A stretch of 18,279 nucleotides of DNA from a virus (taxonomy: Duplodnaviria; Heunggongvirae; Uroviricota; Caudoviricetes), in IMG/VR virus record IMGVR_UViG_2695420624_000002, positions 1 through 18,279 of that record; one strand, given 5' to 3'. Below the pieces are notes generated by a model. That model made no database searches. It was not told the origin of the DNA and saw only the letters and a list, made by a program, of their open reading frames with translations. Made by a program: the position numbers and the translations under genes. How positions within the stretch are numbered: the stretch's first letter is position 1; every line of letters starts with the position of its first letter. Shown in pieces: positions 11,168-12,915 of this stretch.

Positions 11168-11866
11168 AGCCTGCTTCTCCTTGCCTTTCGGCACGTAAGA
11201 GGCTAACCTACATGTGTTCAGCATGGATTGAGCCTCAGATTAATGTTAAGCGTCTTGCAGGACGCGTAATGTTAACTGGGGCTTTTCTCTATCTGCCGTT
11301 GGTGTTCATGCCCGAGGCAGATAGCCTCAAGCACCCACAGCCATTCTACTTAACTACCGTTACCTCGCCAATATGAAATCAGTCAGAAAGGCGATCCATA
11401 AGAACAACAGCAAGGCAATAAATTGCCATTACAGCAGCAATAGCCAGCGCACATTTGAGAACAAGCACCACAACCTCCTGTATTGGACGTACACCAGTCC
11501 TGATAAATATGAGGCTGTCTCGTCAGTGATTCAATACAACTATTGGGTATAGTTTCTGTGATTTTGTTCTGTAGAAATGGAACACGACAACCAGTCACCA
11601 CCAGCACTTCTTTAAATACGCCAAGTCCGACGCAAGCTAACCTTCTAGTCCGCTTTGAGCGAGAAGCGGACGTTCAATGTGATAAAGCTCAGGAACATTG
11701 TCGTTGATGATGATAAAGAGGATCAGACTAACTTAGCACTTCTCATCACGTTGATAAGGCATAGAAATTACAAACACTATTGTGAATATCGTTTTACTAT
11801 AGTAAATTCAAGTAAGTTCTTTTCGTTCGTTATTACACAAAATAAAGTTCACTCTAAGGTTGAAAA

Positions 11867-12310
11867 ATGTTAGATATCAGAATGTCACGACCATCTGAAG
11901 CAGATGAGATCATACAAATCTGGAAGAGTTCAGTGGATGCTACCCACGACTTTCTTACAGGTCATGACCGACAAGAAATCGAAAAAGAAGTTGTCGGCTT
12001 TTTCTCAGAAACTCCTGTATGGGTTGCAACAAATCAGGATGACCAACCGCTAGGATTTATGTTTTTGCATAAGGGCCATCTGGAGGCACTTTTTGTAGCA
12101 GGCTCTGCTCGCGGACTTGGCGTCGGAAAACGTTTGATCTCTCATGCACTGGCACTGCATCCAGAGCTAAGCGTTGATGTAAATGAACAAAACCAGCAGG
12201 CTGTAGGGTTTTATCAGCATATGGGTTTTAAGGTATCAGGGCGTTCCGATCTGGATAATCAGGGAAGGCCATACCCCTTGTTGCATCTGAGAATGGCCAA
12301 TAACATGTAA
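11867..12310 (+). CDS. GNAT-family N-acetyltransferase, 147 aa
   Basis: Acetyl-CoA binding signature ...FVAGSARGLGVGKRLISHAL... followed by ...VNEQNQQAVGFYQHMGFK...; RBS AAGGT before the ATG; preceded by a long AT-rich leader. Confidence 0.75.
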   Translation: MLDIRMSRPSEADEIIQIWKSSVDATHDFLTGHDRQEIEKEVVGFFSETPVWVATNQDDQPLGFMFLHKGHLEALFVAGSARGLGVGKRLISHALALHPELSVDVNEQNQQAVGFYQHMGFKVSGRSDLDNQGRPYPLLHLRMANNM

Positions 12311-12330
12311 CCAATGTGGCAGAGAAGATA

Positions 12331-12915
12331 TCATTGATTTTTTTGGCTAAAAGCCACGATGTAAGAACAGCTCTGCTCACTATCTGGATTGCTCATTTGG
12401 TACTCGCTTGCAAAGGTAAGGGCAAGACAGTCACCGGCACGTAAATGATGGGTCTGATTTTTGACTCGAAAATCAAGGCTACCACTCATCACCCAAAGCG
12501 TTTGCCCGGAAAGATGCTCATTTGCGGAGGCGGGTATCGTCAACTCACCCATTGCAGGAATTTCAACTTTGATCAGTTCCGGGCATGCCCCCGCAGGAGA
12601 CAAAGACCAACGAGTGATGCCTGATTGCTCATCCGTCCAGTGCTGTTGCTGATGAGCAAAACGAACCAGGGAATTCTGATGTTGCTCAAGCTCTGCAAAG
12701 AGTTTAGATAGCGTTACATTCATGGCGTTGGCCAGGCGGCTAAGGATAGTTGCACTAGGGCTGGAGATGCCTCGTTCAATCTTACTAATCATGGCCTGAC
12801 TGACGCCCGATCGTTGAGCAAGCTCTGTTACAGTCAAATTGCGAGCCTTCCTGTGTTTAAGCAATAAACGTGCAATATCGCTATCTACTATCTGATTTTT
12901 AGATTTTTTATCCAT
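12331..12915 (-). CDS. XRE-family HTH transcriptional regulator with C-terminal cupin-like domain, ~194 aa
   Basis: HTH_3 signature LTVTELAQRSGVSQAMISKIERG near the N-terminus when started at ATG 12915 (RBS AGAGAGGG); C-terminal ~100 aa beta-rich, cupin-like (inference). The track ORF start at 13095 is an upstream extension. Confidence 0.7.
   Translation of the reverse strand: MDKKSKNQIVDSDIARLLLKHRKARNLTVTELAQRSGVSQAMISKIERGISSPSATILSRLANAMNVTLSKLFAELEQHQNSLVRFAHQQQHWTDEQSGITRWSLSPAGACPELIKVEIPAMGELTIPASANEHLSGQTLWVMSGSLDFRVKNQTHHLRAGDCLALTFASEYQMSNPDSEQSCSYIVAFSQKNQ

Follow-up and report, generated by a model that had tools for sequence, protein, structure and literature searches.

We analyzed a stretch of DNA of 18,279 nucleotides from a virus of the Caudoviricetes (IMG/VR record IMGVR_UViG_2695420624_000002, positions 1 to 18,279; the whole stretch is called the window hereafter), focusing on two convergent genes that encode a GNAT acetyltransferase and a transcription regulator with an XRE-type helix-turn-helix (HTH) and a cupin domain. 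At a probability of roughly 60%, we read this pair as a self-contained regulator-enzyme module, consisting of a YjaB-family acetyltransferase and its cognate regulator, that is carried as the cargo of a hairpin-bounded cassette, is swapped between contexts within the hairpins, is controlled by a ligand and benefits the lysogen, with an IS110-family insertion sequence (IS) arriving later. An initial annotation, made from the sequence without database searches, had placed a convergent pair of non-phage genes between hok/sok and the IS110 element in the nin-equivalent slot of the phage; both open reading frames (ORFs) were confirmed, and the sequenced phage Evi has the pair as well. The two genes by themselves are an unremarkable accessory acetyltransferase and regulator; the point of interest is their vehicle.

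A hairpin-bounded cassette carries the gene pair

The copies of the pair in the window, in P2-like prophages and in a genomic island are about 98% identical. This identity begins at 11647/11648 and ends at 13073, with the shared sequence resuming at 14570 on the far side of the IS. The cassette therefore comprises 11648-13073 plus 14570-14585, about 1.43 kb at 43% GC, and contains the following features:

11648..11671, plus strand: L-type boundary hairpin GTCCGCTT-TGAGCGAG-AAGCGGAC, forming the cassette's left end, where identity with a P2-like prophage (L004) and the island (L005) starts
11773-11786 and 11793-11806, plus strand: pair of operator-like palindromes in tandem, AACACTATTGTGAA and TTTACTATAGTAAA, spaced 20 bp centre to centre
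11867..12310, plus strand: YjaB-family GNAT, 147 aa (Pfam Acetyltransf_10/7/1, E 2e-13 to 1.5e-11)
12331..12915, minus strand: XRE-HTH/cupin transcription regulator, 194 aa (Pfam HTH_3 7e-17, 61.7 bits against a cutoff of 23)
12916..13065, minus strand: upstream region of the regulator gene, with a conserved block, TTTATGTAATGGCATAATCAGG, just upstream of the ribosome-binding site (alignment of E. coli, E. coli B2 and Pantoea)
13066..13073, plus strand: 5' arm of the R-type hairpin, GTCCGCTT, separated from the remainder by the IS110 element
14570..14585, plus strand: loop and 3' arm of the R-type hairpin, TTGGCACA-AAGCGGAC, the right end of the cassette

The L hairpin spans 24 bp, with an 8-bp stem and an 8-nt loop (folding free energy as DNA -8.6 kcal/mol, z -3.0). 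The R hairpin, GTCCGCTT-TTGGCACA-AAGCGGAC, has the identical stem and the same orientation with a different loop, and is found intact, as GTCCGCTTTTGGCACAAAGCGGAC, in Evi, L004 and L005. An 8-bp-stem hairpin had been annotated at 11649-11672 as an element of the GNAT leader; the hairpin exists, at 11648-11671, and is the left boundary repeat of the cassette. We also considered the hairpins as intrinsic terminators and rejected this possibility: a consensus scan called none, and by eye no T-run follows either hairpin on either strand.

In phage P2, fun(Z) is bounded by hairpins of both types, located at 15335-15358 (R-type, 2 mismatches) and 17432-17455 (L-type, 4 mismatches), and we therefore assigned the window cassette to the Z/fun type. 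The passage on fun in a review (PMC8987985, citing Nilsson et al. 2004) has the gene flanked by inverted repeats that allow site-specific exchange; by that account, this type of hairpin-bounded cassette was described for P2 in 2004. The fun locus is the second defence hotspot of P2, with three validated systems (Vassallo et al. 2022, PMC9519451). Our literature searches found no description of the L/R hairpins in lambdoid phages.

Cassette family and exchange of cargo

For an overview of the family, IMG/VR was scanned for both hairpins, yielding about 155 loci, and annotated records fetched earlier were added to the analysis. The hairpins of an L...R pair are oriented alike and lie 0.4-5.7 kb apart, and the spacing of tandem R-L hairpins is fixed at about 42 bp from start to start. 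The 89 L...R cassettes fall into 46 cargo clusters, mostly AT-rich and containing one to four genes. Among the matches listed, the pattern occurs in many Enterobacterales genera; some alphaproteobacterial palindromes found there are perhaps unrelated.

Three cargo clusters (C02, C04 and C03, the last being the GNAT/regulator pair) are found in both lambdoid and P2 slots, and C03 also in the island. Near-identical copies of the pair occupy the same lambdoid slot elsewhere, including in the 40-kb phage Evi, lie between the tail-fibre-assembly gene G and the tail-sheath gene FI in P2-like prophages (L004, L046), and adjoin an iron-uptake cluster in the genomic island (L005). The lambdoid slot, between hok and a DUF977 gene, holds at least 12 cargo clusters for which both lambdoid flanks were matched, and its flanks are present in 1804 of 5426 complete E. 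coli genomes (about a third). In its barest form, in E. coli A20 (L299 500-770), the slot has just ~230 bp of non-coding filler between an L hairpin, whose 3' arm is decayed, and an R hairpin. Between the same hairpins, the slot of phage Tritos (L006 4423-6247) holds a PDC-S15/FRG-domain protein, and that of phage mEp460_ev081 (L007 4406-6370) the validated defence gene PD-T7-1. A PADLOC scan of 18 cargo proteins from 16 clusters matched 7 to defence models (PD-T7-1, PD-T7-3, retron RT_IV, PRTase_III-A, NsnA/PD-T4-2, PDC-S15 and PDC-S39). Cargo outside defence includes an MFS transporter as well as genes that RefSeq annotates as TonB receptor and ABC transporter in the L005 island unit.

Where one cargo occupies two contexts, the hairpins are chimeric. 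The 5' arm of the L hairpin tracks the context (GTCCGCTT in lambdoid, GTCTGCTT in P2-like and GTCCGCTG in island copies), and its loop and 3' arm track the cargo; at the R hairpin, the 5' arm and most of the loop track the cargo, and the last loop base and the 3' arm the context. In other words, each boundary repeat is composed of two parts with different affiliations, which places the crossovers within the hairpins themselves, in the windows nt 4-13 for L and nt 9-17 for R. Crossovers at these positions are compatible with a site-specific mechanism as well as with homologous recombination over 24 bp. In clusters C02 and C07, changes at one end of the cassette are compensated at the other, which suggested pairing between the ends; this did not generalize (15 versus 8 of 52).

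The pair as a module of bacterial chromosomes and Pantoea arrays

We located the contigs that carry regulator homologues and read the gene neighbourhoods there. The pair is a conserved regulator-enzyme module that evolved in bacterial chromosomes. In Serratia marcescens, the regulator (91% identity) and GNAT (83%) genes stand tail to tail at one chromosomal position in 4 genomes (L290-L293), between nrdDG and an arsP-like permease/phn operon, with no GNAT gene called in one of the four. Convergent pairs are likewise present in the chromosome of Acinetobacter haemolyticus (L289, one genome; regulator 60%, GNAT 74%), on a Providencia contig (59% and 70%) and in assembly GCA_964206815.1 (63% and 73%). 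All four contexts are non-phage, with neighbours that are mutually unrelated and identities of 59-91% for the regulator and 70-83% for the GNAT. At 41-42% identity of the regulator the link becomes looser, one homologue having a different, divergent GNAT and one having none. Upstream of the regulator, Serratia retains a decayed R-type hairpin.

Next to the chromosomal orthologues lie, in Serratia, an arsP-like permease gene together with the phn operon and, in Acinetobacter, an ars operon. These arsenic/phosphonate neighbours in two unrelated genera may be a coincidence, or may point to a substrate such as an amino-organoarsenical or an aminophosphonate; we draw no conclusion on the substrate from them because the neighbours in the other taxa are unrelated.

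The pair is rare in E. coli, with copies in 53 of the 5426 complete genomes, of which 13 are at least 97.5% identical and 40 ~80% identical. One of the ~80% copies was read, in E. coli F11 (L003 9113-10866): it lies in an old prophage remnant at icd, between the icd remnant and sitABCD, with degenerate hairpins only and a second GNAT gene alongside.

Pantoea plasmids, as seen on P. ananatis plasmid NZ_CP020945.2 (70000-119000, L298) and on P. vagans pPant1 (L168), carry extended arrays of small genes in which the pair (84-88% identical) makes up a single unit. The array genes encode several GNATs as well as NUDIX, ASCH, metallophosphoesterase, VOC and hydrolase proteins, and an R-L double hairpin stands between neighbouring units. 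Over 49 kb of one plasmid, the hairpins are co-oriented in 21 of 21 cases, regardless of the direction of the genes. On pPant1, the GNAT is intact (147 aa) and the regulator next to it lacks the HTH half. One edge of the Pantoea array carries a TraI relaxase fragment and a HigBA pair.

The acetyltransferase, its regulator and candidate control sites

By sequence, the GNAT belongs to the YjaB family of protein-lysine acetyltransferases. It matches the YjaB equivalog model NF007807 of NCBIfam (PRK10514) at 230.5 bits (6.5e-69; cutoff 134), with residues 1-144 aligning to model positions 2-145 of 147, and its best sequence match in the PDB is 2KCW, the nuclear magnetic resonance structure of YjaB (7.7e-50). 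K-12 YjaB is 53% identical to it, and the orthologues linked to a regulator are 70-89% identical. It retains the catalytic Tyr116 and, as R82-G-L-G-V-G87, the acetyl-coenzyme A (AcCoA) binding motif R/Q-x-x-G-x-G/A, and Y116, R82, G85, V86 and G87 are invariant in the alignment; in YjaB, Y117A and Y117F abolish lysine-acetyltransferase activity, which identifies Y117 as catalytic (Christensen et al. 2018, PMC6199490). None of the toxin chains AtaT, TacT, KacT and ItaT is among the 35 PDB sequence matches of the GNAT at E<=10, and a PADLOC-DB v2 scan of it returned 0 families at E<=1.

The regulator's Pfam Cupin_2 match is below threshold (21.3 against 27.2), and its cupin assignment comes from structure prediction. 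The AlphaFold2 model (41 homologues; mean predicted local distance difference test, pLDDT, of 86) shows a five-helix HTH and a beta-barrel, with eleven strands between residues 92 and 191. Using Foldseek, the model matches the HTH-cupin regulator 1Y9Q over its full length (183 columns, 3.6e-14) and stand-alone cupins with a TM score of about 0.7 and a root-mean-square deviation of 2.3-3 A. Homologues of the regulator are mostly 194 aa long. It aligns to PuuR over the full length at 44.5 bits; the equivalog cutoff is 211, and hence it is not a PuuR ortholog. Its PADLOC-DB matches are generic HTH models only. The modeled HTH-cupin fold, of a ligand-sensing type, makes the conditional expression proposed in the initial annotation plausible.

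The two genes are convergent, with 20 bp between their stop codons. The palindromes AACACTATTGTGAA and TTTACTATAGTAAA, of type TTCACTATAGTGAA, overlap the likely GNAT promoter (TTGTGA-17 nt-TAAATT), which we assigned by inference, a consensus promoter scanner having made no call there. In an alignment of the region upstream of the GNAT gene (versions from E. coli, Pantoea ananatis and P. vagans that are otherwise about 80% identical), the sole invariant block holds the pair of palindromes; a motif scan supports the sites, and the palindrome is recognizable upstream of the GNAT in Serratia and Acinetobacter as well. Considering that these conserved palindromes overlap the putative GNAT promoter, we infer that the regulator controls this promoter and that its cupin domain senses a ligand.

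Insertion of an IS110-family element into the right boundary hairpin

The IS110 element lies inside the R hairpin, between its 5' arm and its loop, and is absent from phage Evi, where 13073 joins 14570. It is a later, secondary insertion into the right boundary hairpin, and its earlier description as an original flank of the pair has to be given up. Its parts are:

13074..14569, minus strand: IS110-family insertion sequence, 1496 bp (Pfam DEDD_Tnp_IS110 4.4e-30, Transposase_20 3.3e-19)
13101-14339/14378, minus strand: IS110 transposase (Pfam domains and RefSeq)
14379..14569, minus strand: non-coding end upstream of the transposase, 191 nt (RNA fold -64 kcal/mol, z -4.85)

Relatives of the element (85-87% identical) have targeted the same hairpin point in independent insertions. 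The left IS end lies at GTCCGCTT^ in the window and in L014 (3-824) and L221 (2677-4168), which come from Pantoea piersonii and one viral contig. A Superficieibacter contig (L196, 5893-6011) has the right IS end only, abutting the loop of an inverted L-type hairpin. The non-coding end contains TTCTGGCACAA and CAAAGCGG, which are identical to the loop/arm of the R hairpin; in a shuffle control for this target match, an 11-mer was reached in 6 of 2000. The non-coding end looks like a bridge-RNA guide, and this putative guide is a better fit to the hairpin of Pantoea than to that of E. coli.

Proposed function and alternative explanations

The most likely function of the pair is that of a ligand-controlled YjaB-type acetyltransferase, which would give the lysogen a conditional benefit. 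A dimer of the regulator would bind the two conserved palindromes overlapping the GNAT promoter, and a small molecule in the cupin domain would make it release them. The GNAT gene is antisense to the early-right operon of the phage and could therefore be expressed in the lysogen; the enzyme would then acetylate an amine-bearing small molecule or protein lysines, and this acetylation would provide the conditional benefit. Several points weigh against this reading. The region upstream of the regulator gene has no conserved palindrome that matches these two, and binding of the regulator to the palindromes is proposed from adjacency and conservation only. Lysine-acetyltransferase activity of YjaB has been shown only under overexpression (PMC6199490). 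None of the 5426 E. coli genomes has an empty, single-hairpin slot, and the arm-pairing test (between the two ends of a cassette as against inside one hairpin) came out at 15 versus 8 of 52. Finally, defence genes make up about half of the other cargo types that were scanned, which favors a defence role.

In such a role, the pair would be an anti-phage defence or superinfection-exclusion system, in which the GNAT acetylates a phage or host protein on infection and the regulator acts by silencing or by sensing the trigger. The pair shares its slots with the validated defence genes PD-T7-1 and PD-T7-3 (lambdoid) and fun(Z) (P2), the P2 fun locus has three validated systems (Vassallo et al., PMC9519451), the cassette is as AT-rich as other cargo (43% GC), and the orientation of the GNAT gene suits expression in the lysogen. 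Neither protein has a specific PADLOC-DB match, however, and the orthologues stand among ordinary chromosomal genes (Serratia nrdDG/phn, Acinetobacter ars/dusA, Providencia) with no defence neighbours, although by themselves the chromosomal orthologues of the GNAT bear neither for nor against defence. In addition, the cassettes also carry an MFS transporter and TonB/ABC iron-uptake genes, and those of Pantoea hold small genes for GNAT, NUDIX, ASCH and hydrolase proteins. We consider a defence role unlikely, and keep it in view because of the company that the pair keeps. Far less probable is a toxin-antitoxin pair, with a GNAT toxin that acetylates aminoacyl-tRNA and an XRE protein that neutralizes or represses it, as the initial annotation had raised. 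A small GNAT in a prophage accessory slot beside an HTH protein would suit such a system, XRE-type antitoxins exist in other toxin-antitoxin families, and NCBIfam gives weak HTH matches to HipB/Y4mF antitoxins. The YjaB-family match of 230 bits and the PDB matches, with YjaB best at 7.7e-50 and no AtaT, TacT, KacT or ItaT at E<=10, show no relationship to these toxins, and strains overexpressing the homologue YjaB were grown for 8-10 h in a lysine-acetyltransferase study (PMC6199490). The genes are convergent rather than operonic, which the initial annotation had correctly held against a classic operon of GNAT and ribbon-helix-helix (RHH) genes, no small co-directional or RHH/DUF1778 ORF accompanies the GNAT, and the partner is a 194-aa HTH-cupin of the ligand type. 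The intact GNAT beside the HTH-less regulator on P. vagans pPant1 further argues against a toxin-antitoxin relationship.

Regarding the vehicle, the hairpins might be ordinary palindromes like the repetitive extragenic palindromes (REPs) or bacterial interspersed mosaic elements (BIMEs), giving 24 bp of homology for exchange by RecA or phage Red/RecT with no dedicated machinery. We regard this as quite possible, at somewhat less than even odds: the hairpins are present in many Enterobacterales genera among the matches listed, an IS110-family element targets them as REPs are targeted, the crossovers can be placed only in broad windows, the arm-pairing counts are the 15 versus 8 of 52 given above, and no recombinase gene is linked to them in the window prophage or the Pantoea array. 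Against it stand the two loop types in strict L...R order and orientation, the fixed R-L spacing of ~42 bp, the 21 of 21 co-oriented hairpins over 49 kb of a Pantoea plasmid whatever the gene orientation, and the citation of Nilsson et al. 2004, in the review passage on fun (PMC8987985), for site-specific recombination enabled by the repeats. Conversely, the hairpins may mark a dedicated, hairpin-acting, integron-like system of gene-cassette exchange that shuttles defence and accessory genes among P2-like phages, lambdoid phages, islands and Pantoea megaplasmids, with the GNAT/regulator pair as one selectable cargo that possibly has a role in phage competition; this wider proposal is a tentative one, and we hold it doubtful. 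The initial annotation had also allowed for a core chromosomal segment caught between two prophage remnants, which should reveal itself by a fixed chromosomal position in prophage-free genomes. Such a position exists in S. marcescens, from nrdDG to the arsP-like/phn genes in at least 4 genomes, and the context in one Acinetobacter genome is chromosomal and non-phage. In E. coli there is none: the pair is found in 53 of 5426 genomes and inside the 40-kb phage Evi, it occupies three unrelated contexts at about 98% identity, and the window runs unbroken from Q/RusA/DUF968 to the replication and immunity genes as one lambdoid prophage. The fixed position, existing outside E. coli only, thus shows the origin of the module, and a trapped core segment, refuted for E. 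coli by these findings, is scarcely credible.

The regulator-enzyme module as cassette cargo has implications beyond the pair itself. The fast turnover of phage defence hotspots was called an open question by Rousset et al. 2022, and the precise chimeric hairpin junctions in two unrelated phage families offer a testable handle on it. The same pair of hairpins frames P2 fun(Z) and, in the lambdoid slot, validated defence genes (PD-T7-1, PD-T7-3 and retron components) as well as PDC candidates. The cassettes connect a common lambdoid slot with the Z/fun slot of P2, with islands and with Pantoea plasmids, and an IS110 element of their own targets them. Besides defence genes, the cassette system captures ordinary chromosomal regulator-enzyme modules, which serves as a warning that hotspot cargo is not automatically a defence system.

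Prophage setting and neighbouring features

The window is a lambdoid prophage, of which 4563-18279 is 99.98% identical to the prophage of E. coli 2015C-4136CT1 (NZ_CP027550), integrated beside a tRNA-Ser gene near mtfA. Related prophages that carry the pair at the same position are thus known, namely this prophage and phage Evi. On the minus strand, from right to left, immunity and replication genes are followed by the DUF977 gene (14655-15077) and the study region, and further leftwards by hok/sok, DUF968, RusA, Q, three tRNAs and lysis genes; because of this gene order, we place the pair in the nin-equivalent region. Its left neighbours are:

11012..11224, minus strand: mok/hok toxin ORF (Pfam HOK_GEF 3e-23), outside the cassette
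11012-11167, minus strand: hokD, by RefSeq annotation of the near-identical locus in NZ_CP027550
11162..11336, minus strand: 5' region of the hok mRNA and sok antisense element (Rfam RF01794, 113.5 bits against a gathering score of 59)
11337..11647, no strand: non-coding lambdoid backbone, common to phages with other cargo and containing a spurious 59-aa ORF

The counterpart of sok is annotated as sokW in phage 933W/VT2-Sakai. Phages Tritos and mEp460 align with the window up to 11674 and diverge beyond. The ~450-bp leader ascribed to the GNAT gene does exist as an upstream stretch, but it is a composite of hok/sok (11225-11336), phage backbone (11337-11647), the L hairpin (11648-11671) and cargo (11672-11866), so that only these last 195 bp belong to the cargo. 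The 59-aa ORF annotated within it at 11372-11551 is present, at 11373-11552, and was rejected as a gene: homologous copies show in-frame stops, a frameshift or a lost ATG, and substitutions are concentrated in codon position 1. A leader RNA or riboswitch was likewise rejected, since Rfam at E<=1 over 10900-14700 gave sok/hok alone.

Further features of the prophage were noted. A weak isrK-like match lies just downstream of hok (10922-11003, minus strand; 27.8 bits against a gathering score of 50, E 0.003) and overlaps a GC-rich, terminator-looking hairpin. The three tRNA genes (7997-8243, minus strand; Arg, Arg and Ile according to RefSeq) are located just downstream of Q along late transcription, and the late region contains an STnc100 small RNA (7051-7223, minus strand; Rfam RF02076, 100.8 bits). 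Window positions 1-4562 do not align with the otherwise near-identical NZ_CP027550 prophage, and both phage Evi and the prophage remnant of F11 contain tail-fibre and Lom-region DNA that matches parts of this stretch. Tail genes abut a DUF6645 late-region gene in the window, which suggests a deletion or rearrangement in the prophage.

Comparison with known systems

The closest known system for the enzyme is K-12 YjaB, with which it shares the equivalog family, the length of 147 aa, the catalytic Tyr and the AcCoA motif. The window GNAT differs from it in belonging to a distinct subfamily that always adjoins an XRE-cupin regulator; K-12 yjaB is monocistronic and has no such neighbour, whereas the window copy is mobile and phage-borne. 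With the GNAT toxins AtaT, TacT, KacT and ItaT, it has the GNAT fold and small size in common, but no detectable sequence relationship past the superfamily, and those toxins sit in operons with an RHH antitoxin, unlike the convergent window GNAT, which has no RHH partner. The regulator resembles PuuR, SutR/YdcN and VC1968 of V. cholerae (1Y9Q) in combining an N-terminal XRE HTH with a C-terminal cupin barrel, although its invariant columns lack conserved metal-binding histidines.

The IS110-family element IS621 reportedly inserts into REP/hairpin targets by means of a bridge RNA. The window element resembles IS110 elements of this type in its DEDD and Transposase_20 domains, in its sequence-specific insertion at a single point of a palindromic repeat and in its structured non-coding end with target-matching segments; the IS621 type targets the E. 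coli REP, whereas the target of the window element is the L/R cassette-boundary hairpin.

The cassettes are also reminiscent of integron cassettes, in that both are small promoter-carrying or promoterless units in co-oriented arrays with structured junctions, have cargo rich in GNATs and defence genes, and have boundary sites that resemble two-parent hybrids. An integron attC is one long imperfect stem, whereas an L/R junction consists of two separate 24-bp hairpins ~16-18 nt apart. We tried the junction as an attC and rejected it: inspected by eye, it shows no R''/L''...L'/R' arrangement, and there is no integrase, IntI being found neither in the window nor in the 49 kb around the Pantoea array.

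For the cassette, the closest known system is P2 Z/fun. The window cassette differs in its location, a lambdoid prophage in which it separates hok from the DUF977/replication genes, and it carries a metabolic-type regulator-enzyme pair with no recognized defence gene. Both nevertheless have the same L/R hairpins, and the identical GNAT/regulator cassette is found in the Z/fun slot of P2-like prophages.

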